Source: a virus
Length of the DNA stretch: 64,000 nucleotides
IMG/VR virus record: IMGVR_UViG_3300044732_000737
Span: 1 to 64,000 of that record
Reading direction: 5' to 3' (one strand)
The translations under genes were made by a program, and so were the position numbers. This document shows, piece by piece, positions 5,042 through 49,738 of the stretch (position 1 is its first letter; every line of letters begins with the position of its first letter). The notes under the pieces are model-generated. The model saw nothing but the letters and a program-made list of their open reading frames with translations, was not told where the DNA came from and did no database searches.

Positions 5042-7210
5042 TTAACAAAAAGCATAATCCGAGTACACGATCTGTCCTACATCAAGATTACCCCTCTCAG
5101 GAATAAGGTCTTCACAGTGAAGTTCAGACAATAATTTCTCTAAGGGTTTGGCTTTATAGAACTCTACAAACTGTTCTCTTACTCTATAAAACAAATCATC
5201 CATACGTCCCGGTAAAGTACCGAAAGAATCATGGACAACAGTCATTTCATATGGTGCAGACACTACAGTCATTGTCAAGTGAGCAGCATCGAAACTATGA
5301 ACGATGTTTGGTGCAGCACCTGTCTTTTGGGAATCTTTGTTAATAGTTGCTTCTTCCCAAGTCTGAAGTTGAATCTTTAATTCTTCTTCTCCGTACTTCA
5401 ACTTAGTACGTACAATAGATGGCTTACGATATGCCTGAACTACTGGGAAGTTAGTTACAGGTGTAGTCCATTTTAAAAACACTTCTTTTTCATTAGATCT
5501 TTGTGCAAGATTTTGAAACATACGAAGCATTGTGGCTGGCCCTTTAAGTTTCTCATAACAAGTCTCAAAGACCAAGTCACCTAGCAAAGCACCCCAGAGG
5601 TGTTCCTTGTCACGGAGATACTCAGACATATCACGGGTATCATCAATAATCTGTTGACCCATGCCGTATGCAGTACCACCGTAACCGAGAGTCATTACAT
5701 TTCTCTTTACTACTTTACGCTGATCTTTTGGATTATCAATGTTAAGCCAGTAAATAGGAAATAACTTTTCTCGTATAGCTCGATTCTGATTACGCCATTC
5801 TTGAGCAGCAGCATAAGCTAAGGCCTTCTGCTCTGTCTTGTCTGGTGCATCAAAGTAAGCCTTTTGAAGTTCCTTAGCTTTACTGTAAACTGAATCGAAT
5901 TGATTACGTTCTTCATCAGTAAGCTTATCTGCCATTTCCTGTAAATGTTGCCATACATATTTTGCAATATACATGTACACATCACCAGGAAGATCTTGAG
6001 GGACTAAATTAACTAATGGTGCAATGTCTTCATCTTGAGACATAGCTACTAGGTGCTGAACACCGTTATTAGAGCCATCGATATACACTGGAAGTGCACA
6101 CTGATAGTCTTCTAACTTGTTACCTAGCATTAGCCATTCTTTGATTTTCCTTAGTTCATTACAAGCAGCTAAGAAAGAGAATGGAGCATCGGTATCAATC
6201 CAACCTTGGTTAATAGTTGGTTTCTCTGCATAAGATAAGAATAAATTAATGTTCTCATCTACGAACTCAGCCCTCTGCTTTAGCGTCACCTTGTCGTTAC
6301 CAAAAGAATTGGCAGTATGTACCTTTAGCCAGAACAAACCATTTTCACCGAGAGGTGTGGCCTGATCTAGTAATAGTAGACCTTTTGCGTTATCGCTAGA
6401 CTGCTCGTGTAAAAATGCAGTGTTGACATACACTCGACCACGAAAGTCAAAGTTATACACATGATAGAAGGCATTATCTAGGTGAGTTAAAGCTAATTGT
6501 TCAATAGCTTCTGCTTCAATTAGCAATGACTTTCTTTTCTCTTCATCAATCTCAGAGTGTAGTTTGAAAGGACTAGTCGGATTCTCTTTATGGAGGAAAT
6601 GCTGATATACTTTGAATACATCTTTATTGATCCGCCATCCAGTAGCCTGTAGCTTATTCAGAATATCATACAAGGTTTGCTTGTCGTTATTCTTAAACTG
6701 AGCTAATGCTGTAGAATGACCTTTCTTAATAATTGGTACACCTAAGTTATTGTAAGCAGAGTCCCAGGGTGTTGCTTTTTCTCTAAGAGGAAATATATCA
6801 ACTTTAGTTTGATCTATTAAACTCCAGAGATCTTTAATTGCTTTCCAATCTTTTACTTGAAAGAAATAAGCTTGATATTTACTTTTCTTGCCGTTCTTGT
6901 ATGTGTACTTTAATCTAAAAGAAAGAACTCCACATTCAATATAAGCAATACAAATAAACCAGCCAACCTGTGCATCAGAGATAGTATCGTTAGGTAAGTC
7001 AAGTGTTTGTCTAACCCTTCTACCAATGGTAGCGATAATGTCTACTAATGTACCTTGTCTCTCAAGTCCACGTAATATATGAGGATATGAGATGTCTACT
7101 AATGTTTTTGCATCATAATCCTTTAAATAGTGAGTGTAGATATTCCGGTCTGCACGTAAATTTTCTTGCCGTTTACTAATATCACTTACTAATTTATTTA
7201 ATATCGTCAT
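5042..7210 (-). CDS. Single-subunit (T7-like) DNA-directed RNA polymerase
   Basis: DFRGRVY, motif A DGSNNGVQH, motif B RKVVKRNVMTLGYG, AAPNIVHSFDAAH, motif C VHDSFG, C-terminal YAFC (T7 has FAFA). Confidence 0.97.
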   Translation of the reverse strand: MTILNKLVSDISKRQENLRADRNIYTHYLKDYDAKTLVDISYPHILRGLERQGTLVDIIATIGRRVRQTLDLPNDTISDAQVGWFICIAYIECGVLSFRLKYTYKNGKKSKYQAYFFQVKDWKAIKDLWSLIDQTKVDIFPLREKATPWDSAYNNLGVPIIKKGHSTALAQFKNNDKQTLYDILNKLQATGWRINKDVFKVYQHFLHKENPTSPFKLHSEIDEEKRKSLLIEAEAIEQLALTHLDNAFYHVYNFDFRGRVYVNTAFLHEQSSDNAKGLLLLDQATPLGENGLFWLKVHTANSFGNDKVTLKQRAEFVDENINLFLSYAEKPTINQGWIDTDAPFSFLAACNELRKIKEWLMLGNKLEDYQCALPVYIDGSNNGVQHLVAMSQDEDIAPLVNLVPQDLPGDVYMYIAKYVWQHLQEMADKLTDEERNQFDSVYSKAKELQKAYFDAPDKTEQKALAYAAAQEWRNQNRAIREKLFPIYWLNIDNPKDQRKVVKRNVMTLGYGGTAYGMGQQIIDDTRDMSEYLRDKEHLWGALLGDLVFETCYEKLKGPATMLRMFQNLAQRSNEKEVFLKWTTPVTNFPVVQAYRKPSIVRTKLKYGEEELKIQLQTWEEATINKDSQKTGAAPNIVHSFDAAHLTMTVVSAPYEMTVVHDSFGTLPGRMDDLFYRVREQFVEFYKAKPLEKLLSELHCEDLIPERGNLDVGQIVYSDYAFC

Positions 7211-7306
7211 TATTATTCTGTTTTATCTTTTAAGAATTTGAGAAGATTGTTTGATACTTGTTTTCCGATTAAAACCCCGAATAAGAGTAAGAGTGTTGTA
7301 ATTATA

Positions 7307-7336
7307 ATTATACTCCAATTTGATTAAAAAAGTGAA
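7307..7336 (-). promoter_or_regulatory. Possible sigma70-type promoter upstream of the RNAP gene
   Basis: TTCACT-18 bp-TATAAT, followed by a second TATAAT. The AT-rich context weakens the call. Confidence 0.35.
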
Positions 7337-7368
7337 CTCTGCCGCCCCCCGAAGGAGACGGCAAGTTC
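7326..7368 (-). terminator. Hairpin/terminator with cUUCGg loop upstream of RNAP
   Basis: GAACT-TGCCGTCTCC-TTCG-GGGGGCGGCA-G-AGTTC-ACTTTTTT. Confidence 0.7.
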
Positions 7369-7510
7369 GGTTCATTTTCGTAATAGCTCCAGTAAAGTGA
7401 AAGATACGCTCGAAAGCAGGATAACGATTGCTAAAAACAAAATGTATTTTGCAAACAAGGTAATAGCTGTAACTGCAAAAGCAAATATACAGATATACCA
7501 AATGCTCATA

Positions 7511-7699
7511 CTAATCATTTCTTTCATCCTTTTTCCTTATTTTTAAATGAGAGAATACCACACCAGCAATACCCCATAAGGTAGTCATCACTAACAATGT
7601 AATTAGCGTCTTAACAATGGTTGATAAGACAACTAAAGAATACATTGAAGTAAGTAAACCTATAAAGGATATCACTGCTAGGATGGATAACGAAATCAT
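7511..7699 (-). CDS. Small membrane protein
   Basis: Two hydrophobic segments; AGGAAGG RBS. Confidence 0.6.
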   Translation of the reverse strand: MISLSILAVISFIGLLTSMYSLVVLSTIVKTLITLLVMTTLWGIAGVVFSHLKIRKKDERND

Positions 7700-7795
7700 T
7701 TAACTGGCCTTCCTAAATAAGCTAAAACAAAAGCTACTGTATATGTAACTGCATAGTACATAATAGGTAACAAGAAAAAGCTCAAGATTGACATT

Positions 7796-8029
7796 TTATT
7801 TCCTAATAGTGTTAACATGACCGATTTGTTTAAATCGTTGATTAACTAGTCGCATTGGATTGGCTTTCCAATGATCAAGTTCTTCACCGATTTTATTGAA
7901 GAATTCCAGACTATGTGGTTCATGGCGAACTTTAGCATAGTTGAAAATCTCTTTACTGACTTGGTAGACATAGCCTTCCTCATCAGCAATCTTTACATCA
8001 GAATAGGCAGGTGGACATTTAGTACACAT
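7796..8029 (-). CDS. Hypothetical early protein
   Basis: Tightly packed minus-strand ORF with GGAG RBS. Confidence 0.6.
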   Translation of the reverse strand: MCTKCPPAYSDVKIADEEGYVYQVSKEIFNYAKVRHEPHSLEFFNKIGEELDHWKANPMRLVNQRFKQIGHVNTIRK

Positions 8030-8030
8030 T

Positions 8031-8285
8031 TTAAACTCCGAGTTTTTTATCTACAAAGACTAAGTCTTCAATAGCTTTGAAAATCCTACGAAAGTCTTCA
8101 GCAGACTCTGTAAGGACAGAAGCTACAGTTTCTCCACTCATGTATGCTGATTTAACATCATACAAAGAAGGAGACACTACAGCCTGCAAGAAGTCGTCAT
8201 ATACAGTTACTTCAACAGAGTCGAAGGCATTGTACTGAACAGCTTCTATAGTATAATCACCAGCTTTTAAAGTTAGTCTAGGCAT
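8031..8285 (-). CDS. Hypothetical early protein
   Basis: Tightly packed minus-strand ORF. Confidence 0.6.
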   Translation of the reverse strand: MPRLTLKAGDYTIEAVQYNAFDSVEVTVYDDFLQAVVSPSLYDVKSAYMSGETVASVLTESAEDFRRIFKAIEDLVFVDKKLGV

Positions 8286-8287
8286 AA

Positions 8288-8581
8288 TTAATTCTCAAAT
8301 ACTTGATCGTAAATTGTACTGAATTCAATAATAGAACCATCAAGCTGAACTTCATTACACATTCTCTCAATTAGATCTTTAGAGTAACTTGTAGCATAAA
8401 TTGCTGGTATACCCTTAGTGTCATTTGAGAAAATATATGTGAGGCCAAACTCTTCTAATGATTCAATTACTTCTTGTGCTGTAGTTCCAAAGTTATCCCC
8501 ATAAAGAGGATTCAACAGTAAGTACCTAGGCATAGACTTTCCTTTATCAAGTTCTTTGATTCGATTTGAGTTACTATTCAT
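8288..8581 (-). CDS. Hypothetical early protein
   Basis: Tightly packed minus-strand ORF. Confidence 0.6.
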   Translation of the reverse strand: MNSNSNRIKELDKGKSMPRYLLLNPLYGDNFGTTAQEVIESLEEFGLTYIFSNDTKGIPAIYATSYSKDLIERMCNEVQLDGSIIEFSTIYDQVFEN

Positions 8582-8905
8582 ACTATTACAATCTCCACTA
8601 GTTCTGGAAGATATGCTTCAAGATCTTTTAGATTAGTTGTCTTAGTAATCAAGTAACCGCTTTTCTTAGAATACACGTAGTACATTACTTCAGTCATTTT
8701 AATTCCTTTGTTGATTAGAACAGAGCGTCAAGACCGTGCAGTACCAAAGCTAACAAACCCATTGAAACTGCAACTACTGTAACAGCATCCATAAGCTTTT
8801 CATTTACTTTCATGATTTTCCTTTTTGAGTTAATAAGATTAGAGTCCTATCTTTTAAGATATTCTTCTATTATAGATACGTCATTTTTCTCACTTTTTTT
8901 TTGAT

Positions 8906-8935
8906 AAAAAAGGCCACCCTTTTTACGGGGTGACC
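8906..8935 (-). terminator. Intrinsic terminator ending the structural operon
   Basis: GGTCACCC-CGTAAAAA-GGGTGGCC-TTTTTT right after ORF 8943-9176. Confidence 0.85.
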
Positions 8936-8942
8936 ATTAACT

Positions 8943-9176
8943 TTAAGCAGGTACTGGTTGAGTCTCTGCTGGTTGCTCTTCTGATAAAGCTTTCTTAAGC
9001 ATATCAAAGAACGTGTTACGACCTACTTGGAGTTGATCCAAGTTGAATTTAGAGGAGTCGATTTTGCGATCTAAGTCTGCAACATGGTTTAACAACATTT
9101 GCTGTTGTTGACTCATGTCCTCATACTTGTATTCTACGCCATCGATATTTACAGGGGTCTTTTCATTTTTTCCCAT
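8943..9176 (-). CDS. Small coiled-coil protein of the tail-fibre locus
   Basis: IDGVEYKYEDMS...HVADLDRKI...QLQVGR pattern; last gene of the late operon. Confidence 0.7.
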   Translation of the reverse strand: MGKNEKTPVNIDGVEYKYEDMSQQQQMLLNHVADLDRKIDSSKFNLDQLQVGRNTFFDMLKKALSEEQPAETQPVPA

Positions 9177-9250
9177 TTTAATTTCCTTTTTAAATTGTCA
9201 CTAAATGTCAGGTAGTGACTTCCTGTTATATTTGTTTGATTATCTTTTAA

Positions 9251-9850
9251 TTAGAGGTAACCATTAGATAGTCCAATAGTAATACCAGTTCGTGTAGTTA
9301 ATACAGGTGAACCTGAAGAGCTTGAAGATATTTCTACAGTGTATGTAGCGGTTATTTGGTTAGCTGGACTTTGAAAGATAACGATTTCTCTACCTGAGTT
9401 TAATTGAAGCCAGCCAGTAGAAGCGGTAGATGCAGCATCTGCTCCAGGACCTCCTGTTGCTGTTTTCGTAAATCGAATCCAATAATTTGATCCTATACCG
9501 CTAGTAGTTGGGTTACCCCAAGTTTGGCCAAGGGATTGATATCCAAAATCATAACCATACTGATCCATAGTTCCATTAGCATTCCACCGAATACCTGCGC
9601 CAGCTGTTTCTCCGAAGGAGTAAAACACATCATCAATAAAGTAACCATTACCAAAACCGCTTGAATAAGCTACTGTAAAGTTCGCTTTACCCCAGCCATC
9701 GCTCATTGAAATAGTTGTGCCACTTCCAGTCTTTTGAAACAAAGATCTAAGAGCAGAATCATTCATATCAATGGTAGCAGTGGCTGATCGTCCAAGTTCA
9801 GTGTTTACTTGGTTTAATGATATAGTACTGCCAGATCCTGGAAGTGCCAT
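9251..9850 (-). CDS. Putative tail-fibre tip adhesin / virion protein
   Basis: N-terminal MALPGSG..ISLNQVNTELG...TISMSDGWGK module followed by a Gly/Ser/aromatic beta-rich domain; lies downstream of an S74 fibre. Confidence 0.55.
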   Translation of the reverse strand: MALPGSGSTISLNQVNTELGRSATATIDMNDSALRSLFQKTGSGTTISMSDGWGKANFTVAYSSGFGNGYFIDDVFYSFGETAGAGIRWNANGTMDQYGYDFGYQSLGQTWGNPTTSGIGSNYWIRFTKTATGGPGADAASTASTGWLQLNSGREIVIFQSPANQITATYTVEISSSSSGSPVLTTRTGITIGLSNGYL

Positions 9851-9852
9851 AA

Positions 9853-10203
9853 TTATGCCTCAGTAGGTGTTGCTTCTGGGGCAGGTGCCCAAGGCATTGG
9901 GGTAGAAACCAAAGCAGCTTTTGCAACTTCTTTCCCTAACACATATTCAATATGTGCTTTGATAGCAGGAATGCGCTCATCTGTAGCTTCAACCCAAGCC
10001 ATAACAGCAGTTTCTGTTAGACTAGTCAATGGTACAAAGTTAGCAGAATCAGGATCACCAAGCTCGGTTGTCTGTGGTAATTCAAACTTCTGACCAGCCT
10101 CTTCACCGATTAGTGTCCATTCAACTTGTTTCACTGTGTTTTCTAATCCGTTAACTGTAGCAGTACGGATACCGTTAATTTTAATTGTAAATGCAATTGC
10201 CAT
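9853..10203 (-). CDS. Tail-fibre accessory protein (paralogue 3)
   Basis: FVPLTSLTETAVMAWV...MPWAPAPE, similar to 15068-15433. Confidence 0.7.
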   Translation of the reverse strand: MAIAFTIKINGIRTATVNGLENTVKQVEWTLIGEEAGQKFELPQTTELGDPDSANFVPLTSLTETAVMAWVEATDERIPAIKAHIEYVLGKEVAKAALVSTPMPWAPAPEATPTEA

Positions 10204-10205
10204 AT

Positions 10206-10553
10206 TTACTCCTGTTTAGCCAATTCTTGACTTATAATGTTTTTAAAAATCTGTATTAATTCTTCAGGTATTGAATCATCAAGCCATTCCAAAATAATTT
10301 CATTTGTAATTTGATCATACGGTATATAATTGTTTTGATCAAATACTGAAGGTGTTACAGTAACTTCACCTGTAGAGGGGTTAGTTGTTTCAATTGGTTT
10401 TAATTCAAAAGGAATAACTCCCTGACAAAACGAAGAATTACCTGATTCATTTGTACCTACATAATCATAATGAATATGAGAAATAATATCAGGTATTCCA
10501 TATACTTTGGTACGACTTAATTGTCGGACATTAAATGTGTATGTGATATTCAT
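10206..10553 (-). CDS. Tail-fibre accessory protein (paralogue 2)
   Basis: MNITYTF...YIPYDQITNEIILEWL, similar to 15068-15433. Confidence 0.65.
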   Translation of the reverse strand: MNITYTFNVRQLSRTKVYGIPDIISHIHYDYVGTNESGNSSFCQGVIPFELKPIETTNPSTGEVTVTPSVFDQNNYIPYDQITNEIILEWLDDSIPEELIQIFKNIISQELAKQE

Positions 10554-13500
10554 GAGTTAACTTTCTTTTCTAATTCTTCTATTTTAGAGTTTAATTTTTC
10601 AACTGTAGAAGTTAATTCTTTAATAGCTTCAATAAACAAACCAGCCATGTTACCATATTGAACACCATACTCATCTACATCTTTTGCATAAGTAACTGCT
10701 TCGGGTAAAACTTCATTTACTTCTTGGGCAATTACTCCAATTTGACGTTTGTTAGTATCAACTTTATCGTCATTTGTTTCAATACGTTTGTAAAATACAC
10801 CACGTAATTTGTTAACAGTAGCAAGGGCGTTGTCAACAGTTACAATTTCTCTTTTCTTACGAACGTCTGAATAAGCAACTACGTTACCTGTTGAATAGAT
10901 ACCGCCATCTACATACATAGCATATGCTGAACTTGTTGATGATGTTCTTACACCAAGGCAAGCATTACCTACAGACCAATAATAGACCCAGTATGTGTAG
11001 TTATATAGACCACCGTTTCCACCGCTATCAAACATACCAATAGTTGCGTTGTTAGAACTTGGGAGTCTTATTCCGGAATAACTATTTTTAATTCCAGACA
11101 ATTGCATTGGTCCGTATGTGCTGTCGTTTGCATGCCAATGTGGTGTGCCAGATGAGTTAGGCCAATAAGTACCATAATTACCATCCATTTGAATCCAGTT
11201 GTTTGGACGGAAATAGCCACCTCCGGCTAATGTTAACTGATACAAATATGAAACACCATTTGGATTTACGTAATAACCTGTGTCAGCGTAATCGTAAAAA
11301 ATTGGGGATCTGAAAGAACCATCACTAGCAACCTGAGAAAAAATACCGCCAGATGCGCCATTGCCAAAGTTAACAGCGGTACCTGCATAGTAGTTGAGAT
11401 ACATAGCATTACCAGCTTTTGCATCTAAGTGCAAATTACCATCTGTGGTTGTAACACTTGCGTAGGCGGTATTCCAATTACCATTCCCACCAACAATAAG
11501 ATACTGCCCCCAAGAAACGTTAGGGCCAAACAAAGCACCGCCACGCATACGCAGTGCTGTATTACTTGTACTGTTAGGGTCTATATAGTAACCAGTATCA
11601 TTTCTGTCATAAAAAATAGGTGCTCTAAGATCATCCGGTACTGAATTAATATTACCTGTATGAAGCATCTCTACCCAGCTTCTTGGAGTTGCCCAAGAAC
11701 TTCTCCAGAAGAATCTATTATCCGCTTCTCCGGCACATACCATTTGGAAACCGTACACATTTGCGCTATTTTGATGGTTATAATGACATCCCTGCAAGCC
11801 CACGTAGTGGGAAGACAAACCACCAGCAGGTGCACTTCCAGGGTTACTCCAACTATCAATATAACCAGAGCCCCAATTAGAAAAGATGGTAGTTAAATCA
11901 ATTGTACCATTACCCATTGTACCATTACGATAATTTGCTGAACCAGCGTATCTAGCTGCATAGGGCGAGTTTGCTGACATTGCATTCATGTCATTGTAAC
12001 TCATAGTGAATTCACTAAGCTTATACAGATTAGATGTACTATTTGGATCTACAAAATATCCAGTGTCTTGCTGATCATAAAATAAATTAGCTCGCATGTC
12101 ACTAGTATTTATCTGACTGCCGCCATTTACTTGTATTTGGGCATTAAAATAAAAATTACTCAGGCTAGTATAAATATGAGCATGGCCACTATTTGCAGGT
12201 CCAAACTGAATCCAACCATAAGGTGTGGTATTACGCATACCCCAGTCACCCGCATGGATGTAGTACCCGCCATCGCCAAAGTCAATACTAGATTGTCTAC
12301 TTCTACCTGCAGGGTCTGTAAAGTAGGCTGTGTTATTATTGTCGTAATAAATTGGCGCTCTGACATCTCCTGCATATAAAATATTTTCTACACGGACATT
12401 GTTATCACCCTTGGCAATAGAAAATACTTCTGTTCCACTATAGTATTTAATAGAATTGTTATAAAAACGTATACCACCGTAATTATAAGCGGCACCTATC
12501 TTAATACCAGTATGCCAATCTAAAGTTAATTTTGTGTAATTACCACCATAATTTTCTAATGTGGTTCCAATAGAATATCCTTGAATATCACTTTCATTAT
12601 GGCTATTAAAGAATAATGTACCTTGTCCAGCAGTGTCGTATACTGTTCCACTAGTATATCCTAAATCAAGGGATTTTAATTCACTTTTACTATTTGGGTC
12701 TACGTAATAAGTAGTATCATTGCTGTCGTAAAATATTGGTGCACGCAACGAGCTAGATGCTTGACCAGTACCGCCACTTAATGTAAATGTCCAATTACTG
12801 CCATAGCCATAGTTATCAAAATTATAGGAATTGGCATTAAAGTAACGATTTCCACCGCTAGTATAATCTCGAGAACCCCATGAGCCAACGCTACCTGCTG
12901 TGCCACCTAGATGCAAAATACCTGCAAAATGTGAGTCGCCTGCTATTGATAAACGTGTATCAGGTGTTGCACCGCCTAGACCTAAACTATAAAGTCTAGA
13001 GTTACCATTAGGGCTTGTGTAATAACTAGTGTCGTCGCTGTCATAAAAGATTGGTGCACGAGACGAGTTTATCGAAAGCGAGTAATCGCTCATTAAACGG
13101 AAAGTTTCTGCGCTACCAGTACCCATTCGTACCCAAGCGTTGCCGCCAGCTACAAGGCTACTACCTCGAGCAAACAAATTCAAACTATTTGCGTCTGAAA
13201 CAATCGTAATACCTTCTGGAGTATATGGAGGGAAATTATCCCCTGGGCCTTTAATTAAAAAGTAACCAGCATCTGCAGCTGTTGATGAGCTTGTACTTTT
13301 AGAAAAGAAAAATCCTGCATATCCACCATCAGATGGTGCTTGAATACCTAAGTCATAATTTCTACGTACTCCTGAAGACACTCCTGTCCAAGGAACGGAG
13401 CCTGCGGAACCAGCGCTACTAGCAGAACCAGTAACGTTAATGCTCCAAGTACCAGATGCATTTGACTGCACAGCACTAGTAAAATGAGCAATACTTGCTT

Positions 13501-15037: not shown

Positions 15038-15067
15038 TAAGTACCTCTTTTGGTTTTGTTGTTAACC

Positions 15068-25329: not shown

Positions 25330-25364
25330 ATATAATATATTACCTAGGGGAGCCTAGGATCTCT

Positions 25365-25381
25365 CTTTAGCGTCCCCTGGT
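25365..25381 (-). promoter_or_regulatory. Putative phage RNAP promoter ACCAGGGGACGCTAAAG(AGAGA)
   Basis: Intergenic copy of the repeated motif, upstream of the GNAT and fibre genes. Confidence 0.85.
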
Positions 25382-25388
25382 AAATTGA

Positions 25389-32819: not shown

Positions 32820-32823
32820 AATT

Positions 32824-40191: not shown

Positions 40192-40207
40192 GATTTCTCC
40201 TTAAGTT

Positions 40208-40246
40208 AAAAAAGCCCTTAATATGTTTTTAGGCACATCAAGGGCT
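40208..40246 (-). terminator. Intrinsic terminator-like hairpin upstream of TMP
   Basis: 13-bp stem AGCCCTTGATGTG/CATATTAAGGGCT followed by a T-run. Confidence 0.75.
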
Positions 40247-40255
40247 AGGGAATGG

Positions 40256-41248: not shown

Positions 41249-41265
41249 TTTATATTTCCTTACTT

Positions 41266-41511
41266 TTACTTATTATCACTAAATAGATGTTTGTTGTTCT
41301 CTTGAAAATCATCTAATACCTTGCGTACAGTATGTAACACCGATAATGTTTCCATAATCTCTTTACCTACTTGACTATCCTTATCGAAGTCTTGAAACCT
41401 CTCAAATGATTTACGAATACTAATATCAACACTACGTCTCATATGACGGAATGTAGTTTTCATAACAAATGATTTACTGAATGGTGGTTTATCTTCTTTA
41501 TTATCAACCAT
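41266..41511 (-). CDS. Hypothetical protein between major tail protein and chaperone
   Basis: AAGGA RBS; first gene after promoter 41563-41579. Confidence 0.7.
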   Translation of the reverse strand: MVDNKEDKPPFSKSFVMKTTFRHMRRSVDISIRKSFERFQDFDKDSQVGKEIMETLSVLHTVRKVLDDFQENNKHLFSDNK

Positions 41512-41562
41512 AATTATCCTTAAATACTATATAATACTACCTAGGGGAGGCCTCAGATCTCT

Positions 41563-41579
41563 CTTTAGCGTCCCCTGGT
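41563..41579 (-). promoter_or_regulatory. Putative phage RNAP promoter ACCAGGGGACGCTAAAG(AGAGA)
   Basis: Intergenic copy of the motif abutting the upstream terminator. Confidence 0.85.
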
Positions 41580-41601
41580 AAAAAGGGGAAATTAATCCCC
41601 T
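41580..41601 (-). terminator. Intrinsic terminator after the major tail protein
   Basis: AGGGGA-TTAATT-TCCCCT-TTTT. Confidence 0.75.
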
Positions 41602-41607
41602 AAGCCA

Positions 41608-42159
41608 TTAAGATGCGTTTACAGTTGCTGGACCGTAGAACTGGCTTTGTACAGACAAAGTCAAAGTTGCTTGGTTAGCGTCTGTTAACTGTGGGCTTAC
41701 TAGCAAAGCTTCTAACTTACCAACGAAGTAGAAGTTAGAGTTAGCACCAGCACCTAAACCCAATGCGTTAGTCTCAAGACTAGCTGGCTTGGAGTTCAAG
41801 AGGGAGAACTGGAAAGCATATTGCTTACCGTCACCAACTCTAGCACCTAGACCACCTACAGTTGTAGGATCCCACTCGGAAGGCACGTAGTTAATCGTGA
41901 GTTCGAGGTTAGGAGCGTCAGATTGACCTTGAATCTGCTGTGATGTTGCTGAACCATAAACAGGAACGTTAACAATGTTAGCAGGAGTACCGATTTGTGG
42001 GAACTCACGAACGTTCTTGATTTCTTTGAATGCTGTATCATCAGCAAACAAAGCTACTAATTCTGATAGCGTATCAGCTGAAGTAATATTTGTGATAGCG
42101 GTAGTATTAACTGCGAGAGCAGAAAAGATACCAGCGCCAATTGAAGTAATGTGTGCCAT
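41608..42159 (-). CDS. Major tail tube protein
   Basis: EIKNVREFPQIGTPANIVNVPVYG...IQGQSDAPNLELTINYVP; position in the tail module. Confidence 0.88.
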   Translation of the reverse strand: MAHITSIGAGIFSALAVNTTAITNITSADTLSELVALFADDTAFKEIKNVREFPQIGTPANIVNVPVYGSATSQQIQGQSDAPNLELTINYVPSEWDPTTVGGLGARVGDGKQYAFQFSLLNSKPASLETNALGLGAGANSNFYFVGKLEALLVSPQLTDANQATLTLSVQSQFYGPATVNAS

Positions 42160-42164
42160 GTTAT

Positions 42165-42566
42165 TTATTCTCCATAAGCTTTAAAATTTATTGAATAATC
42201 ACCACGATAAAGAGATTTATCTGCGGGATCAAGGCCAAGCTTTACTAAAGTGCTTGTGCCAAATTGGGTTCCATTTGTCAAAGTCTTCCCTTGAAAAAAT
42301 GAATCTATTGAGTCAGCAATGCTAAACAGTTGAGCATCACCGTTTCCTGCTTTAACAAAAATCGAAAGGATTAGCATCCCAGATAATTTTTTCTTAAGTC
42401 CATGAGCATCAACAGTAGACTTGCCAGGTAATATTGTTATTCTGATAAATGCAGAGGAACTATCAATAGCTCCGCTATAATTATCAGGATAAGCTTTATA
42501 ACCAGTAGCAGTCCAAGCAGAAGATGCAAATACACCATAAACATCTGATTTTAATTTACTGAACAT
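42165..42566 (-). CDS. Tail terminator-like protein
   Basis: Position before the major tail protein; SGMLILSIFVKAGNG...ADSIDSFFQGKT. Confidence 0.7.
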   Translation of the reverse strand: MFSKLKSDVYGVFASSAWTATGYKAYPDNYSGAIDSSSAFIRITILPGKSTVDAHGLKKKLSGMLILSIFVKAGNGDAQLFSIADSIDSFFQGKTLTNGTQFGTSTLVKLGLDPADKSLYRGDYSINFKAYGE

Positions 42567-42567
42567 A

Positions 42568-42912
42568 TTAAACTCCCGCTAAAGAGAGTACAACTATGAA
42601 CTCATCCTTTGAAATAATATTACAACCGTATTCTACGGAATCAATTGTTACCCGAGAGTAGCGACTGAAATTAATTGTTTTATCATTTTTAATTGTAAGA
42701 GAAGTTGTTGTTACAGGAATTCCAGACTCATAAGTTTTAGACATACTTAAAAAACCAATGGTTGTGTAAGCTTGGTCTGTCTTAACTATTGAACCTGTGC
42801 TAAAACTAAATCCACTAACGATTTTATTGTCAAAAGTAACAGATACAGATAGATCTTTTAATTTTTCAAAAGCAGTATCTACGGATCCTTGTACTTTTGA
42901 TTTGAGAGACAT
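42568..42912 (-). CDS. Head-tail joining (closure) protein
   Basis: Size and position. Confidence 0.6.
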   Translation of the reverse strand: MSLKSKVQGSVDTAFEKLKDLSVSVTFDNKIVSGFSFSTGSIVKTDQAYTTIGFLSMSKTYESGIPVTTTSLTIKNDKTINFSRYSRVTIDSVEYGCNIISKDEFIVVLSLAGV

Positions 42913-43410
42913 TTAGTTTGCCCTCCACCATTGGCTAGAGCCTTGGTTTACTAAAAGTGGTTTTAGGTATTTCTTAACAAGACTAGGAACAACGGGTGTT
43001 CTAGTTGTGTCATTATTACTATCTTTCAATGTAATCGTACCAATAGAAATTTCTTCAAAGTTTTGAGATTTATTATCTAACAAATTTTCATTAGACAATA
43101 AATGATGAGCCATTTCTAAAACAGCTTGTTTCATTCTTTTTGGAATTTCAGATTCACCATAAGTAATACTTCGCCCTAATCTAGGATCAAAAGTTGAAGC
43201 CCCTTTACGAGGCCACGCAAGACTCTGTGTGGAACTGACAGCAACACCAATAAATTGATTTTCATCAAGTAAAAGAGTTGCAGTCACTAATGCTGACTCT
43301 TGGTCATCATCCTGAGCATTTATCCATGCACCCGCATCAATACGAGTATCAAAGTATGCTTCAGCTTCGACCATAGTTACATATGTGTTTGTACCTAGGA
43401 CTAGTGCCAT
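42913..43410 (-). CDS. Head-tail adaptor (DnaT-like family)
   Basis: TNTYVTMVEAEAYF...ALVTAT...QSLAWPR...IPKRMKQAVLEMA. Confidence 0.85.
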   Translation of the reverse strand: MALVLGTNTYVTMVEAEAYFDTRIDAGAWINAQDDDQESALVTATLLLDENQFIGVAVSSTQSLAWPRKGASTFDPRLGRSITYGESEIPKRMKQAVLEMAHHLLSNENLLDNKSQNFEEISIGTITLKDSNNDTTRTPVVPSLVKKYLKPLLVNQGSSQWWRAN

Positions 43411-43427
43411 CAGTTCCTCCTAATGGA

Positions 43428-44519
43428 TTAAGCGTGGAGAATAGGTAGAATACCTAAGTTCAATGCGCTCATCTTACGTGCCCATGAACCAGCAGTGGCA
43501 TAATTAGCGTTGCTAGCGAAGGCATTAGTAGCGCCAGCCCAGTCGTAACCCATTGGGTGTACAACGAAACCATAGCGATACCAGATAGCGGTAGAACCAC
43601 CACCAGTATAAGAAGCAGCTGAACGATCAACTTCAACAGGTGTAGGAACAGCAATGTTTGTAAAGCTGATAGCACCTGGCTTGCAGATGAATGTGGTCTT
43701 TACAGAACGGTCATTTACGTTAGCAGAGGCAGACAAGTCACCTTGAGCAACACGGCTCAAGATCAAACGGAACTTACCACCGAACACGGTTTGGAATGTC
43801 AAGTTACCATCGGTAACAGTTGTGACATCAACCAAGTTAGCAGCACGCAACTCAGCCAACACTTCAGGTGAAGTGATCATGTACATGAAGTCTGGCTCAT
43901 AATCCTTAAAGCCCATACCTAGAGCTTGGAATAAACGCTGACCACGAGCAGCACCAATAGCTGTAGCGTCAAACAGCTTACGCTGATCAGATGCAGAAGT
44001 AGCAGCAGCACCAAAGGTACCGGCAGCGTTAATATCTACGAAGCTACCAACACCAGCGCCATCAGCGTCTGTGTCATAACCAACGATACCAGCACCACGA
44101 GAAACTTCGTATGCAGCTACACCTTTAAGTGTGGCGATAACGGCATCAGACTCGTCTTGGCTACGAACTTCAGAGAAGTCACGAGCAATCTTAGAGAGGC
44201 CATCTTGTTGTGAAACAACTTGTTGTAGATTGACTTGCTCAGAACCAAAGGTACGAACTGTCTTAATGTAGTCAGCAATTTCGGTAGACACATCAGTGTA
44301 AGTACCTGCATTGGCGACAGAGAGGCTAGCAACGTTAATGTTAGCTGCCAAAGGCTTGTACCAGCGCATTTGACCAATGAAGCTTTCGCCTGTTGGGTCA
44401 ATACGGGCATCAGTACCAACGATGCCAGTGCTGTTAAGCTTCTTGGCATTTGTGTACATTTCGTCAGCGTATGCAGAAATAGCAATAGCTACGTTTTGGA
44501 ACATTGTATGATTAATCAT
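43428..44519 (-). CDS. Major capsid protein
   Basis: 363 aa, after the scaffold, strongly biased codons, C-terminal PVEVDR...GGG...HPMGYDW...W.RK. Confidence 0.9.
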   Translation of the reverse strand: MINHTMFQNVAIAISAYADEMYTNAKKLNSTGIVGTDARIDPTGESFIGQMRWYKPLAANINVASLSVANAGTYTDVSTEIADYIKTVRTFGSEQVNLQQVVSQQDGLSKIARDFSEVRSQDESDAVIATLKGVAAYEVSRGAGIVGYDTDADGAGVGSFVDINAAGTFGAAATSASDQRKLFDATAIGAARGQRLFQALGMGFKDYEPDFMYMITSPEVLAELRAANLVDVTTVTDGNLTFQTVFGGKFRLILSRVAQGDLSASANVNDRSVKTTFICKPGAISFTNIAVPTPVEVDRSAASYTGGGSTAIWYRYGFVVHPMGYDWAGATNAFASNANYATAGSWARKMSALNLGILPILHA

Positions 44520-44539
44520 TTAAAAAATCTCCTGTGATT

Positions 44540-45235
44540 TTAAAAGGTGAAGCTACCAAGCTTTCCACCTGCGGCAAGTGCTAACACTTCCTCGGTGGTC
44601 ATTTCAGTAATCTTCTTGTTGGGATCGAGTTTGGGAGTACCGTTCATATTGTTACTACCACCCCCTGAATTAGATTTAGGTTTAAATAGGAAGGAATTAT
44701 CTTCATTCTTCACATATTGTCCTACAAAATCTTTGATTGATACACCTGATTTATGAATCCATGCACCAGTCTCTGGATCTTGGATGAGTTGATCGATAAT
44801 ATCACGATAAGCCATTTGGCTAGATCGGTCATTACGGAAATCAAGGTTAGTTAATGCATTGCGAACTGCACCATCTCTAGTGAGTTCAGTTACTTTGCTT
44901 TCGGCCAACGCAAGCTTCTCAGTGAGTTCTGCGAGCTTCATCTCAGCAACTTCTTTATGCTTACCTTCGTCCTCCAAAGCTTTCATCTTACGTTGTTTAG
45001 CTTCATCTTCTAAACGAACACGCTCTTTAACAGCATTGTCACGTTCTTGATATGCTTTATCTAAACTAACTTTAATTTTAGAAAGACGCTCTTCAACCAA
45101 ACGGTTAATCATGTCTTCTGTATCTTTGTTGTTAGTACCGCCTCCACCAGTATCAACCTGATCGGCTTGAAACTCTGGGTTAGGTGTGGTACCATCATCG
45201 AGGAACTCTTTGTTTCCGAACTTATCTACTTTCAT
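44540..45235 (-). CDS. Capsid scaffolding protein
   Basis: Charged coiled coil, FLFKPKSNSGGG, directly upstream of MCP. Confidence 0.85.
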   Translation of the reverse strand: MKVDKFGNKEFLDDGTTPNPEFQADQVDTGGGGTNNKDTEDMINRLVEERLSKIKVSLDKAYQERDNAVKERVRLEDEAKQRKMKALEDEGKHKEVAEMKLAELTEKLALAESKVTELTRDGAVRNALTNLDFRNDRSSQMAYRDIIDQLIQDPETGAWIHKSGVSIKDFVGQYVKNEDNSFLFKPKSNSGGGSNNMNGTPKLDPNKKITEMTTEEVLALAAGGKLGSFTF

Positions 45236-45301
45236 CTTTGTTTTCCTTTGGCACAGCCATTTAATTTTAATTTTTTAGGGTTTAGTTACAAACTTAAACT
45301 C

Positions 45302-48300
45302 TTACGGTCCAATACCATACCAATCCATACCTTTAGGTATAGGAGCTAGTATATCTTTTCTCGTAATTTTGTTGCGAGGATTTAGTAAGCCATCCTCAAT
45401 AGCTTTTTGGCGAAGTCGATTGTATGTTTCATTTGACATACCTTCTTCTTTTAGTGCCAGTAATGTTTTCTCTATTGTCTCACCTTCTAAAGCATCTGCA
45501 TAGATTTCTCTAAGAGCTACTTTGGACTTTGCTGCTTGTCCTATGTTGGTGAAGAAAGCATCGTGAATCGTTGCGGTTTCAATACCACTTTTACGACCCC
45601 ATAAATGAAATCTTCTTACAATAGCGGCATCATTCATGTGGTTACCGTTAACCCCCATGCCAATGCCAGCCCTTTGGAGGCTTGATTTTCCTAGAAGTGA
45701 AGCATCTTCTGCTCGATCTTCGTAAATATTACGGACCATCCTGTTAGCTTCTTTGTCATAGAACTCAATGCTAGTTTGGATTTTAGGTCTGTATCTCTGG
45801 TATAAAGTCTTACCATCAAATGTTACCCAAGGTACATCGACCTTCTGAGTTTCATCAACGTAAGCTTTAGCAGCTTCTTTCCAGAATTGTACGAATTTTT
45901 GAGTTACTGGTGCTCTCTCAGCTAGTCTCCGAGACATAATCTCTGACACTGCCTTGAAGTCTTGAGGACCAATTAGTCCCTTACGAGCATTCATTAACTT
46001 ATCGACAAACGCTTCTACGTCTGGGTGAGAATCACGAGCGTGTGCTAAAAGTTCTTGCCCCACAGAGGTTTCACCTTCAACAACTTCGTTTAACTCACGT
46101 TTTAATTGTTTAAGACCAAATACGACATTTTCAGCTCCTAGCCTATCTGCCTCTTTAATCTTTGCATCTATAATATTAGTTACTCCACGAAGTTCTTCAC
46201 GGGTAACAACAGTATATCCTTTTGTCTCTAACACTGAAGCAAACTTAGCTTCAATATTAGCTGCTTGTGTTGCTTTACCTGCACCATAGAAAGAAACCAT
46301 GTTTTGTGCTTTTGCAGCCTTTTGAAGATCTGTCCACTGAACATTAGCATCTCTCAATCCTTGTATTTTCTGAAACTCTGGATCAGACACTGTATCCATA
46401 GCTACTAAGTCATACAAACGATTTTTTTGTAATGTAGGTAATACGTTTGAGTTGATTGAAATATCTCTATCCCCAGTACTTAATCCGATGATCTGAGCAC
46501 CAGAGGATGAAGCATCATTCTCAATCATTAATTTTGTCTTATATGTCGCTAGTTTATTTACATCAGTAAAGTCACCACCTACATGATCATATATACGAGC
46601 ATACTCAATAGCTAGTCTGGAGATTTTTGGAATCTCTTCTGCCTCAGTAGCTCTGATAATAGGATGCTCTAGAAATTCCCTGATACGCCTATCACGTTGG
46701 GTAGTTTCCCTCATTAGGCGACCTAAACTTAAAATATCTCTTTGATTTCTCATAAAGATTTCCATCCGACCTGCTTGTGTTAACGCCTCAGTAGCTGGAC
46801 CAATCATAGAACCAGTTTGAATCATTAACTCCTGAACAATTTCAGGTGTAACGGCCTCTGCCTTAGCAGTATTCAAGAACGGACGAACAACTTCACCACC
46901 AGTAGGTGTTAAGAAACCTTGATAGTAAACACGACCACGACCATCGATATTAGCAACAACGCTAAATGGCTTTCCAGTATCTCGATGATACTTTACAGTC
47001 TGCATAAAGCTATATCCCTGATCTCCACGAGTCAAAATAAGTTTTCTAAAGTCATTTAAGTCATCATACTTTTTTACATTTCCACGAGGATCTCTAAAGC
47101 GAACAACATCTTCCATAAATCCAGCATACTCATTATCAACCTCATATTTCACTGACATTGTGTGATTAAGCATATCAGCAAAATCACGATCAATTAGTAC
47201 TCTGTCATAATTAGCATTAGCTCTACGTGTAATAATCGGAATACCTGTGTTATTGCCTCTAGCATCAAAATAAGTCTTAGCTCCAGGTCTTACATAAAGC
47301 TTATCTCTATCAGAGTTAATACCAATTCGTTTTGCTAATAAAGCACTACGATTAGCCCTTTGTAAGTTGAGCATATCTTTATTTAAGATCTGAACTTCAC
47401 GACTAACAGTATCTCTCCAAGGACCACTAGCACGACCAGTCTCAAGATCAACAACTGATCTCCTAGTCTTGCCACGCATAAGTACACGGATGTAGCCTTT
47501 GTCTTTTAATGCTGTAAGAATCTGCGATCCATCAGCATGGTAGTCTTGTAGTGTAGGCTTAAAGAATGGGAAGTCTGCGACATTCCAAGATTCTCTTAGT
47601 GTTTTACCTACATTAATTGCCAATGAATCGTAGTCAGTTGACTTACCATCAGCAACAACAGTCAATACCTTTGATAAGGTATCAATTGCTTTCTTGTCGT
47701 TTAAACCGCCCTCTACTAATTGATTTAAATAACTTTGTCTTCGTTTACCGAATAAAAACTCTAAGTCCACAATCTTACGATAGTCTTCTCTTCTGTTTCT
47801 TAAGAATTCATCAATTAATCTTTCACTAGGTACTTTGTCTTTAAAAAAGAGTTTAGCTCCAGGAACATTACTTAACAAGAATTTAACTACTTTGTCTTTG
47901 AAGTTATCAACACCAATTCTGGGAGCACCTCTAAACCAAGTATATACAGGAGTTCTTCCAGTATAATACAAAGATCTAGCTAATGGCCTACCTTCTGTAG
48001 TAGCCCAATTACGAACATAACGTTGATTATCAATATTATTTTCGATAATCTCGTCAAATGTATAGTACTTACCAAAGATCTGAACTTTAGCTGGCTCTCC
48101 AGCGACCCCATAAGAATCAAACTGCTGAGATCTAGCTCTTGATCTACGATCTAAAATACGGCTTGTGTTAACTACAGAATATTGCATTTCACCACGAGTA
48201 ACATTCATAAAGTTAACCCATGGTTGCTTATCGTTATTGTATCGCTCAAAAATAACACGTAGATTCTCTGCAATAGCAGTCTGTTGATTTACAGATACTG

Positions 48301-49738
48301 AATCATCTAAGCTTTCAACGAATTGTTGAATCCATGCTTTTTGTTCTTGATTAAGAGCCTTAGAATTTTTAATAAAGTCTATACGTTCTTGTAATACATT
48401 AAAGTCTGGATCATAAAGTAAAGTAGAACTTTGTTCGCCTGTGAAAGGATCAAAGCTATTGTTACGTTCATCAAACTCATTGTTTGCTCTAATTCGAACT
48501 GATCGTTTACCTGCTAGAGTAGTACCACGATAATCTACTAAAGAAATAGTCTGAGCAGTATTCTCAGTGTCTGCAATATACATTGCCTTTAACTGTTTAG
48601 TAGCCTCTGTATTCCTCATTAGTTCATATGGTCTAGCCACATTAATTGCAAACAGATTAGACTCTGCCTCGGCTACAGCTGACTGCCTAGTTGGGAAGAA
48701 ACTTGTTCTTGCATTATCAAGCTTCCTTAATGCAGCAATGCTTAGTTGTTGACCTTTAGCAGTCGTAAATGCTTTTACATCCAAAATACCTTTCTGTAAT
48801 AGTCCAGCACGCTCCTCACTACCTAGATGTTTAACTTGAACCATCATAGGCTGGCGCTTAAGCCAAGAACCGTAAGTTTCTACTGGTGGTAAACTACCAT
48901 CAACAAGTTTTTCAGAAGTTTCTCTTAGCTTGTTAACCTTTACTCTTGTATCTTTTGCCTCAGCAGCTTTTAATAGTTCTTCTTTGTTCTTTAAAACAGG
49001 AACCATAGAGCTACGGCAATTCCAGTGAAGTGGTGGTCTAAATCTTAGATCATCAATCTTGTATACTTGGCCATCATGGTGTGCACAGACTCTTGAAGTT
49101 CTATTGTCTAGTACAGCAGTAAATCTGTAACCTTTTAAAACCTCTTTATTACGATCCATTACTAAATTAAGCGCTTGTGCTTGTGTATTAGTAATAGCAG
49201 TCCTAACTAAAACCTTAGCCTGAACCTCAGTCAGGGTGGTTGTTTTAATTACATCTGAAATAATTTCTTTTACTGGCTTATTGTCTGCTAAACCAGATTT
49301 AATCTTTCCATCAATCCTAGCAAGTTCACTCGTACCAACAGTATCAAAGTGATCCCTTAAGCTTTTGGATGCTGTAATGTTAGGTCCAATAAGTTTAGGA
49401 ATAGCATCACTACCCCTAGGCTTTTGAACTCTGAAGAATGAACCAGCACTCTTCTCTAAATTGTTAGCATGAAAGCTTACAGAGGCATCTGCATAGTCAC
49501 TAACTGAATTGCTAGCAATCATGTGCAACTCTTTTGTTGCTCGAGTTACCTCTGGCTTTACATCGGCCTTAATGTTCTTTGTTAAGAGTACTCTAAGGCG
49601 CTTTTGATGTCTACGAATGCCCCTACTTACATTAGTGGAGGTCTCCGCTTCATATAGTCTTGTATCAGCTAAGTGCTGTACAATTCTGTCATAAATTTCC
49701 GTATTAATAGGAGTTGGCATATTTCCCCTTGATACCAT
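45302..49738 (-). CDS. MuF (SPP1 gp7 / Mu gpF) minor head protein fused to a single-subunit RNA polymerase (probable start MPTP at 49720)
   Basis: N-terminal: LVRTAIT...YRFTAVLDNRTSRVCAHHDG...PPLHWNCRS...ETYGSWLKRQP. C-terminal: DGRGRVYY, NDASSSGAQ (A), KAAKAQNMVSFYG (B), VNGNHMNDAA, TIHDAF (C). One uninterrupted ORF. Confidence 0.92.
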   Translation of the reverse strand: MVSRGNMPTPINTEIYDRIVQHLADTRLYEAETSTNVSRGIRRHQKRLRVLLTKNIKADVKPEVTRATKELHMIASNSVSDYADASVSFHANNLEKSAGSFFRVQKPRGSDAIPKLIGPNITASKSLRDHFDTVGTSELARIDGKIKSGLADNKPVKEIISDVIKTTTLTEVQAKVLVRTAITNTQAQALNLVMDRNKEVLKGYRFTAVLDNRTSRVCAHHDGQVYKIDDLRFRPPLHWNCRSSMVPVLKNKEELLKAAEAKDTRVKVNKLRETSEKLVDGSLPPVETYGSWLKRQPMMVQVKHLGSEERAGLLQKGILDVKAFTTAKGQQLSIAALRKLDNARTSFFPTRQSAVAEAESNLFAINVARPYELMRNTEATKQLKAMYIADTENTAQTISLVDYRGTTLAGKRSVRIRANNEFDERNNSFDPFTGEQSSTLLYDPDFNVLQERIDFIKNSKALNQEQKAWIQQFVESLDDSVSVNQQTAIAENLRVIFERYNNDKQPWVNFMNVTRGEMQYSVVNTSRILDRRSRARSQQFDSYGVAGEPAKVQIFGKYYTFDEIIENNIDNQRYVRNWATTEGRPLARSLYYTGRTPVYTWFRGAPRIGVDNFKDKVVKFLLSNVPGAKLFFKDKVPSERLIDEFLRNRREDYRKIVDLEFLFGKRRQSYLNQLVEGGLNDKKAIDTLSKVLTVVADGKSTDYDSLAINVGKTLRESWNVADFPFFKPTLQDYHADGSQILTALKDKGYIRVLMRGKTRRSVVDLETGRASGPWRDTVSREVQILNKDMLNLQRANRSALLAKRIGINSDRDKLYVRPGAKTYFDARGNNTGIPIITRRANANYDRVLIDRDFADMLNHTMSVKYEVDNEYAGFMEDVVRFRDPRGNVKKYDDLNDFRKLILTRGDQGYSFMQTVKYHRDTGKPFSVVANIDGRGRVYYQGFLTPTGGEVVRPFLNTAKAEAVTPEIVQELMIQTGSMIGPATEALTQAGRMEIFMRNQRDILSLGRLMRETTQRDRRIREFLEHPIIRATEAEEIPKISRLAIEYARIYDHVGGDFTDVNKLATYKTKLMIENDASSSGAQIIGLSTGDRDISINSNVLPTLQKNRLYDLVAMDTVSDPEFQKIQGLRDANVQWTDLQKAAKAQNMVSFYGAGKATQAANIEAKFASVLETKGYTVVTREELRGVTNIIDAKIKEADRLGAENVVFGLKQLKRELNEVVEGETSVGQELLAHARDSHPDVEAFVDKLMNARKGLIGPQDFKAVSEIMSRRLAERAPVTQKFVQFWKEAAKAYVDETQKVDVPWVTFDGKTLYQRYRPKIQTSIEFYDKEANRMVRNIYEDRAEDASLLGKSSLQRAGIGMGVNGNHMNDAAIVRRFHLWGRKSGIETATIHDAFFTNIGQAAKSKVALREIYADALEGETIEKTLLALKEEGMSNETYNRLRQKAIEDGLLNPRNKITRKDILAPIPKGMDWYGIGP

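Follow-up and report, generated by a model that had tools for sequence, protein, structure and literature searches.

Two divergent single-subunit RNA polymerases, one of them fused to a MuF head protein, suggest a transcription relay in an uncultured lake siphovirus

Introduction

Transcription relays that are started by a polymerase carried in the virion are known from coliphage N4, from jumbo phages such as phiKZ and AR9, and from the Thermus siphovirus P23-45. Here, we describe a candidate for a further relay in an uncultured long-tailed lake phage. The DNA analysed, hereafter the window, comprises bases 1-64000 of a 77,817-bp virus genome in IMG/VR (IMGVR_UViG_3300044732_000737). It encodes two single-subunit RNA polymerases (RNAPs): a free enzyme of 722 amino acids (aa), and a 1478-aa protein in which an RNAP follows a MuF head-morphogenesis part. 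We consider it on balance probable that transcription of this phage runs on its own two polymerases in sequence, first an injected MuF-RNAP and then the free RNAP.

N4 (Schitoviridae) is a podovirus that uses its virion RNAP gp50, then the two-subunit RNAPII (gp15/gp16), and finally the host RNAP for its late genes. The phage described here would resemble N4 in that an injected single-subunit-type RNAP would transcribe early genes encoding a second, T7-like RNAP, and both are distant relatives of T7 RNAP. However, gp50 has 3500 aa, whereas the fusion has 1478 aa with an N-terminal MuF part and a C-terminal RNAP. Encapsidation of gp50 depends on its C-terminal region with a metallopeptidase domain and not on MuF (PMC5512222). 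For P23-45, experiments have demonstrated a relay in which a virion RNAP joined to a structural protein is followed by a second RNAP (PMC10770324). Its gp96, which is fused to the tape measure, transcribes pre-early genes including that of a second, non-virion RNAP, gp64, and gp96 and gp64 are directed by two distinct DNA motifs (PMC10770324). The P23-45 enzymes are two-barrel RNAPs related to those of cells with the tape measure as carrier, in contrast to the T7-type single-subunit enzymes and the portal-associated MuF carrier of the present phage.

T7 and SP6 (Autographiviridae) are podoviruses with one phage RNAP, which is made by the host RNAP from sigma-70 promoters, and none in the virion. 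Despite these differences, the free RNAP groups with theirs, and the 23-bp promoter with its -17 to +6 register and purine-rich start is also shared, as is a first phage promoter directly behind the RNAP gene. An N-terminal MuF domain is likewise joined to a C-terminal enzymatic cargo in MuF-effector fusions (polymorphic MuF toxins and polyvalent proteins), where the cargo is believed to travel in the virion and to be delivered along with the DNA (PMC5512222), but the cargo described here is a 920-aa RNA polymerase. No RNAP cargo was listed in the 2017 survey of MuF and polyvalent proteins, according to which virion RNAP modules are confined to N4-like phages (PMC5512222).

Among cultured phages, the roseophages DSS3_VP1 and DSS3_PM1 (Naomviridae, Noahvirus) are the closest relatives; the DNA of these siphoviruses carries deoxyuridine (dU) in place of deoxythymidine (PMC8323127). 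Both polymerases are also present in these two phages, where the records label the fusion only as "head morphogenesis" or "minor head protein-like". RNA polymerase is mentioned neither in the paper on these phages (PMC8323127) nor in a 2025 single-particle paper (PMC12669031). Literature searches, with subscription-only papers outside their scope, found no published description of a MuF-RNAP fusion or of such a two-RNAP relay.

Two T7-type RNA polymerases in one genome

The whole 77,817-bp genome contains exactly two matches to the RNAP family PF00940, namely the free RNAP and the fusion. Both genes were found on the minus strand where a preliminary description of this DNA had placed them (Table 1), with all of the motifs quoted for them at their places.

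The free RNAP matches PF00940 with 270 bits against a cut-off of 22, and T7 RNAP with an E-value of 4.6e-62. It carries motif A (DGSNNGVQH) at residue 378, motif B (RKVVKRNVMTLGYG) at 498, and motif C (HDSF) at 660, and ends in YAFC. DGSNNGVQH, RKVVKRNVMTLGYG, IVHSFD, and HDSFGT align at the corresponding T7 positions. The protein belongs to the T7-like single-subunit RNAPs by its Pfam match and by its counterparts of T7 residues D537 (motif A), K631 and Y639 (motif B), D812 (motif C), and H784.

The fusion is the only PF04233 (MuF) match of the genome (E 7.4e-11, residues 148-245; 43.2 bits, cut-off 29.6), and its gene starts 27 nt after the portal gene. By domain and by its place beside the portal in the head module, it is a MuF/SPP1 gp7 minor head protein. 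The polymerase part scores 28.9 bits against PF00940 (cut-off 22; E 6.9e-7, residues 1059-1434). No further Pfam domains were found in the 1478 aa. Its motifs are GRGRVY at 933, DASSSGAQI at 1075, QKAAKAQNMVSFYG at 1139, and HDAF at 1392, and the C-terminus reads YGIGP. In 20 aligned family members, with identities down to 51%, D932xRGR, D1075, K1143, Y1151/G1152, H1367, and H1392-D1393 are invariant. Pfam and the conserved catalytic residues thus agree in assigning the module to the T7-like RNAPs.

An AlphaFold model of fusion residues 440-1478 (predicted local distance difference test, pLDDT, 79.5; predicted template modelling score, pTM, 0.73) has T7 RNAP as its best structural match (Foldseek E 1.5e-18). 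Model residues 125-1037 superimpose on T7 residues 42-882 (VIA; Z 29.8, root-mean-square deviation 3.5 Å over 522 residues). Mitochondrial RNAPs follow with Z 25-27, and the N4 mini-vRNAP (2po4) is much more distant with Z 16.8. Because of the structural matches to T7 RNAP, residues ~559-1478 are predicted to form a whole T7-type polymerase including the N-terminal domain. The fused RNAP looks complete and active, as judged from its conserved residues and its modelled fold. Neither its overall architecture nor the closest match of its polymerase module is that of the N4-like virion RNAPs. The "N4-like logic" of the preliminary description is a fair account of how the system may work, but not of the family of the fused enzyme.

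MuF fusions are regarded as virion-delivered effectors or cargo carriers (PMC5512222). Since the fusion is the sole MuF homologue, and since its gene lies between those of the portal and the scaffold, the fused RNAP should, on these grounds, have a role in the capsid. The same architecture recurs in at least 300 protein clusters (1450-1600 aa) and at least 537 IMG/VR loci. This constancy bears on the idea that the fusion is not delivered to the next cell, but acts late in the producing cell, for example in assembly-coupled transcription, or that the polymerase is cleaved off and MuF alone stays in the capsid. The fusion gene does lie in the late unit, behind the promoter at 58653, and a low-confidence segment of the model (model residues 166-231, full residues ~605-670) may be a linker or a cleavage region. 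However, a free RNAP for the late genes already exists, and the fusion is kept intact in hundreds of clusters, which argues that the covalent link to MuF matters. We regard a late-acting or cleaved fusion as improbable.

In relatives, the polymerase genes are often interrupted, and both are uninterrupted in the window. The fusion is split by ~940 nt in relative G001 (L042/L044), and inserts of ~340-500 nt are found in both polymerase genes of relative G003 (L043/L045, L039). In EBPR siphovirus 1 (L050), an HNH endonuclease gene lies between the two halves. These interruptions are probably introns or homing elements.

Two lineages inherited together

The preliminary description held that the two polymerases are not products of a recent duplication, and this was borne out by the phylogeny it had proposed as a check. 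The free and fused enzymes are 21% identical. A maximum-likelihood tree places the MuF-fused enzymes in one clade (100/99) and the free enzymes in another (98/98), with T7, SP6, and Xp10 as neighbours of the free clade (82/89). The deep nodes of this tree are not to be read, since the branches are long and motif B was misaligned by MAFFT in the MuF clade. Kinship of the fused enzyme with the N4 virion RNAP was also considered; with these long branches, the tree resolves no link to N4. Sequence identity and tree together support two ancient, separate lineages.

Within the fused and the free clade, the branching order is identical. The fusion is present in nine of nine Naomviridae-like records that were reached via the free RNAP, one of which (G003) has an identity of only 33%, and likewise in DSS3_VP1 and DSS3_PM1. 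The polymerase pair is thus inherited together.

A conserved early element heads the block of the free RNAP

The preliminary description placed the start of early transcription near 8900. This place is indeed marked by a strong intrinsic terminator (8935-8912), which is kept in relatives with compensating changes in the stem, and by a conserved element directly behind it (8898-8863). The element occurs once in its own genome. In 19 relatives with RNAP identities of 98-60%, a total of 24 copies are near-invariant while the flanks diverge, and the element is still present at 48-49% RNAP identity (DSS3_VP1, G001). Several relatives have two copies 200-300 nt apart. DSS3_VP1 also has two (35790, 36237), which lie after the tape measure gene and upstream of the RNAP gene, and in G001 the RNAP gene is preceded by three.

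The consensus of the element is A5-sTGrGr-N13-TATAAT-GAAGAAA. It ends in CTATAAT-GAAGAA, which is similar to the CTATA-GAAGA at the start region of SP6-type promoters, and unlike in N4, no conserved hairpin was seen. By sequence and conservation, the early element is a promoter-like class of its own, separate from the second class described below and more conserved than it.

The consensus also raises the possibility that the early element is a promoter of the host RNAP, which in T7 makes the phage RNAP, and that the MuF-fused RNAP has another task, such as DNA pull-in, replication priming, or a late function. A perfect TATAAT after an A-tract and two conserved boxes, with a spacer between them that varies in sequence but not in length, are also in the style of sigma-factor promoters. 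In addition, an early block that is followed by the RNAP gene and then by the first phage promoter is the layout of T7 and SP6. However, the gap between the sTGrGr box and TATAAT is 13 nt, without a TG extension, and this argues against a sigma-70 promoter, for which the spacing is 16-18 nt. The GAAGAA after TATAAT is kept although the G+C content differs (38% in this phage, 47.5% in DSS3_VP1), which is typical of promoters of single-subunit RNAPs and not of sigma-70 discriminators. Matches to the sigma-70 consensus in the window were not above shuffle expectation, so that these scans neither support nor exclude host promoters. Reading by the host RNAP would also leave unexplained why a seemingly complete, strictly conserved polymerase is constantly fused to a capsid-docking protein. 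We consider initiation by the host RNAP unlikely, but retain it as the main alternative because of the perfect TATAAT and the two boxes with their fixed-length spacer.

Metatranscriptome data touch on the same region. When contigs of four lake or freshwater runs were compared with positions 3000-11000, sequences of relatives covered the early block and the free RNAP gene. The deepest contig of two runs (8376-8847 and 8310-8844, respectively) ends in Illumina adapter 22-25 nt downstream of TATAAT. Such contigs cannot show RNA ends or exclude carry-over of DNA, and adapter-ended contigs also occur elsewhere, so that these ends are at most a weak hint.

The first two open reading frames (ORFs) past the early element, at 8715-8813 and 8578-8697 on the minus strand, encode a hydrophobic peptide of 32 aa and a protein of 39 aa, respectively. 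Several later ORFs of the early block also look membrane-spanning.

SP6-like promoters at the replication and late genes

The second promoter class (class 2) is a 23-mer, TACCAGGGGACGCTAAAGAGAGA. It has five copies in the genome with 0-5 mismatches (first bases 59273, 58653, 41580, 25382, and 5037), all intergenic and on the coding strand; the next best site has seven mismatches. The ACCAGG..ACGCTAAAG promoter motif of the preliminary description proved real. With at most one mismatch, this 17-mer has six matches, all on the minus strand and five of them intergenic, versus 0.01 expected from shuffled sequences. As had been proposed, these sites head the replication and late genes. They are SP6/T7-like in register: the 23-mer has 12 of 21 positions in common with an SP6 genomic promoter, and 12 of 23 with the SP6 consensus. 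Like promoters of the T7/SP6 type, the copies span 23 bp (about -17 to +6), are intergenic and codirectional with the genes, and have a purine-rich start.

The copy at 5037 is a variant that is kept at the same place in more than 15 relatives. The first class-2 copy lies 5 nt past the free RNAP gene in this phage, ~200 nt past it in G001, and 1.3 kb past it in DSS3_VP1. In T7, phi1.1A follows gene 1 after 26 nt, and in SP6 a promoter follows the RNAP gene after ~100 nt. The class-2 sequence drifts by lineage (TACCAGGGGACGCTAAAG in this phage, ATAGGGTGCGTTAAAG in DSS3_VP1, ATACTTGACCCTTATGA in G001). DSS3_VP1 has ~13 copies of a related but different motif, ATAGGGTGCGTTAAAGAGGGGG, and none of them lies in 29404-45934, where its RNAP gene is found. 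The motif of G001, AAAAATACTTGACCCTTATGA, is unrelated and has five copies, one of them being the copy behind its free RNAP gene. Since the 23-mer is SP6-like and the free RNAP groups with T7, SP6, and Xp10, class 2 fits the free RNAP, to which we provisionally assign it.

Between 25382 and 5037, no intergenic class-2 copy was found. The sole copy there lies inside the RNAP gene, past its start codon, and therefore none heads the free-RNAP block. This is relevant to a scheme in which both polymerases read the same class-2 promoters, with the fused enzyme merely jump-starting the same programme and no separate early class. The T7-like fold of the MuF-RNAP and the T7/SP6-like CTATA..GAAGA start region at the end of the early element would agree with such a scheme. 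However, the two enzymes share only 21% identity and differ in their predicted specificity loops, and an injected enzyme that reads class 2 would begin with the late structural genes instead of the free-RNAP block. A shared promoter class therefore seems very improbable.

The copy inside the RNAP reading frame (6278-6294, minus strand; ACAAGGTGACGCTAAAG) has one mismatch to the 17-mer and encodes ..DKVTLKQ... It is found in some close relatives (L006, L014-L016) and absent from others, and could be an internal promoter or a coding coincidence.

Further structures accompany the class-2 promoters. A CCTAGG..CCTAGG hairpin begins at about +7 after both perfect copies (25330-25360 and 41525-41558, minus strand) and is probably a stem-loop at the 5' end of late transcripts. 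The late unit is set apart from the 160-aa gene behind the 59273 promoter by a very long hairpin with a T11 run (58663-58739, minus strand), which lies immediately before the 58653 promoter. Just behind this promoter and ahead of the packaging genes, an AT-rich stretch (58480-58584, minus strand) contains the direct repeat AGTACTTTAAAG twice and then a GAGACAC..GTGTCTC hairpin. This stretch may be a packaging or replication signal.

A proposed two-polymerase relay

In the relay that we favour, the MuF-RNAP fusion would be made late, docked in the capsid via its MuF part, and brought into the next cell with the DNA. There, its T7-type module would start at the single early element (8898-8863) and transcribe an early unit of ~3.9 kb, which consists of small genes of unknown function followed by the free RNAP gene. 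The SP6/T7-like free RNAP would then read the five 23-bp class-2 promoters. The variant copy behind its own gene would serve the replication genes, and the four consensus copies would serve the genes for packaging, head, and tail, among them that of the MuF-RNAP for the following round. The layout fits this relay, because a late-made, putatively capsid-docked polymerase is combined with a single conserved start that heads only the block of the second RNAP and with lineage-specific promoters ahead of all else, which would belong to that second RNAP. The analysis shows two genes with intact motifs and fold, conserved and inherited as a pair, and two promoter classes at defined positions; to these observations we add, by inference, the packaging and injection of the fusion, the assignment of promoters to polymerases, and the timing.

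Beside the sigma-factor style of the early element, several points weigh against this relay. The paper on the DSS3 phages (PMC8323127) includes no virion proteome, and the fusion is a putative component of virions. In G003, the most distant relative that holds both polymerases (33% identity), neither motif class is recognisable. The single class-2 promoter at 5037 would need to serve ~23 kb of replication genes. Finally, divergence in the predicted specificity loops keeps pace with that of the whole proteins in both polymerases; since the two loops diverge at similar rates, they provide no independent link between enzyme and promoter class.

Genome organization and relatives

Among 97 non-overlapping ORFs (50 aa or more) selected by script, 93 are on the minus strand. 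Followed in the sense of transcription, the gene order begins with replication and nucleotide functions (5'-3' exonuclease, primase-helicase, ribonucleotide reductase) and continues with small genes. The large terminase, PhoH, portal, the 1478-aa fusion, scaffold, and major capsid genes come next. A 2455-aa tape measure, two giant tail proteins, a fibre, and a small-gene block that closes with the 722-aa RNAP follow. Behind the free RNAP gene lie a deoxyribosyltransferase-like gene, a kinase-like gene, and a family A DNA polymerase gene. The 127-bp terminal repeat of the record resembles the overlap of a circular assembly. The features discussed here are collected in Table 1.

Table 1. Positions of the polymerase genes, promoter-like elements, and associated features in the window
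Feature	Position	Strand	Context and basis
MuF-RNAP fusion gene, 1478 aa	45302..49738	-	Between portal and scaffold/major capsid genes; PF04233 and PF00940 above curated cut-off
MuF/SPP1 gp7-like head-morphogenesis part, residues 46-437	48428..49603	-	phrog_241 E 6e-52; PF04233 residues 148-245
Predicted complete T7-type RNAP module, residues ~559-1478 (N-terminal domain, palm, fingers, thumb)	45305..48064	-	AlphaFold model, invariant residues
Portal protein gene	49766..51391	-	Directly upstream of the fusion; phrog_145 portal E 2.5e-58
Free T7-like RNAP gene, 722 aa	5042..7210	-	Final gene of the early block; PF00940 E 3.9e-80, phrog_414 E 1e-130
Small early-block ORFs of no known family, several hydrophobic	7223..8813	-	ORF list; five without PHROG match
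Early promoter-like element AAAAAGTGAGAAAAATGACGTATCTATAATAGAAGA, 36 nt	8863..8898	-	TATAAT at 8874-8869; heads the early block
Intrinsic terminator GGTCACCC..GGGTGGCC and T6	8912..8935	-	Closes the tail-gene unit just before the early element
Class-2 variant TACCAGGGTACGCTAAAGCACAA (…GGGTACGCTAAAGCAC…)	5015..5037	-	Begins 5 nt past the free RNAP stop; heads the replication genes
Hairpin and T-run, candidate 3' end of the early transcript	4990..5013	-	Just past the 5037 promoter
Class-2 promoter TACCAGGGGACGCTAAAGAGAGA, 0 mismatches	25360..25382	-	Ahead of distal tail and fibre genes
Class-2 promoter, 0 mismatches	41558..41580	-	Ahead of the tail module; terminator 41600-41585 before it
Class-2 promoter, 1 mismatch	58631..58653	-	Ahead of the terminase, portal, MuF-RNAP, capsid unit
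Class-2 promoter, 2 mismatches	59251..59273	-	Ahead of a 160-aa gene

By gene order and core proteins, the phage belongs to the Naomviridae. DSS3_VP1 and DSS3_PM1 share with it the order portal, MuF-RNAP, capsid, tape measure, small genes, free RNAP, kinase, and DNA polymerase, as well as two promoter classes at the same places. They differ from it in their class-2 sequence, ATAGGGTGCGTTAAAGAGGGGG, and in protein identities of only ~49% (RNAPs ~49%, fusion 48.7%, portal 45%). The protein distance suggests a different genus or subfamily.

The nucleoside 2-deoxyribosyltransferase-like gene (3277-3690, minus strand; PF05014 E 2.8e-12) lies four genes upstream of the kinase-like gene. A dCMP deaminase was not found among the genes tested in this phage, whereas DSS3_VP1 has a dCMP deaminase gene directly upstream of its kinase. 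The deoxyribosyltransferase-like gene, which occupies the equivalent region ahead of the kinase-like gene, may point to a different nucleotide or DNA-modification chemistry. The large subunit of ribonucleotide reductase, encoded outside the window (G000 71145-73214, minus strand; L003:11145-13214), has a C-terminal glutaredoxin domain. Between the terminase region and the downstream genes, ARAGORN calls a tRNA (55424-55494, minus strand) whose anticodon, UUA, matches the stop codon UAA, and no reading frame in the window requires suppression.

Orphan early elements in bacterial genomes were also sought, and a scan of genome contigs gave only a near-identical phage contig (L150) and one chance match, thus no orphan copy and no dependable indication of a host for this variant. 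The phage contig (JBIKJV010000357.1, 13.8 kb) encodes proteins that are 96-100% identical to those of window positions 2100-9176, and it is binned in a Phycisphaerales metagenome-assembled genome from a lake metagenome. This placement is either a binning artefact or a weak hint at the host.

Implications for the lineage

It is possible, and we put this forward tentatively, that a whole widespread lineage, comprising the Naomviridae and hundreds of uncultured relatives from lakes, the sea, and elsewhere, transcribes its genomes without the host RNAP. An injected, MuF-tethered RNAP would use the strictly conserved bipartite early promoter of ~36 bp and switch on a second T7-type RNAP, which would use lineage-specific 23-bp promoters. 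Such self-sufficiency may permit dU DNA. Cultured Naomviridae are abundant but hidden from metagenomics according to single-particle work (PMC12669031). The design itself is common: it is found at no fewer than 537 IMG/VR loci and in at least 300 protein clusters, and the cultured Naomviridae share it. The availability of cultured relatives (DSS3_VP1 and DSS3_PM1, on Ruegeria pomeroyi) makes it accessible. Two new compact polymerase/promoter pairs may also serve as orthogonal expression tools.

If the relay holds true, a T7-type enzyme on a MuF capsid protein would be a third, independent route by which a polymerase has entered the virion, here in siphoviruses of ordinary size. It would also offer a testable idea of how phages whose DNA is unusual become independent of transcription by the host.

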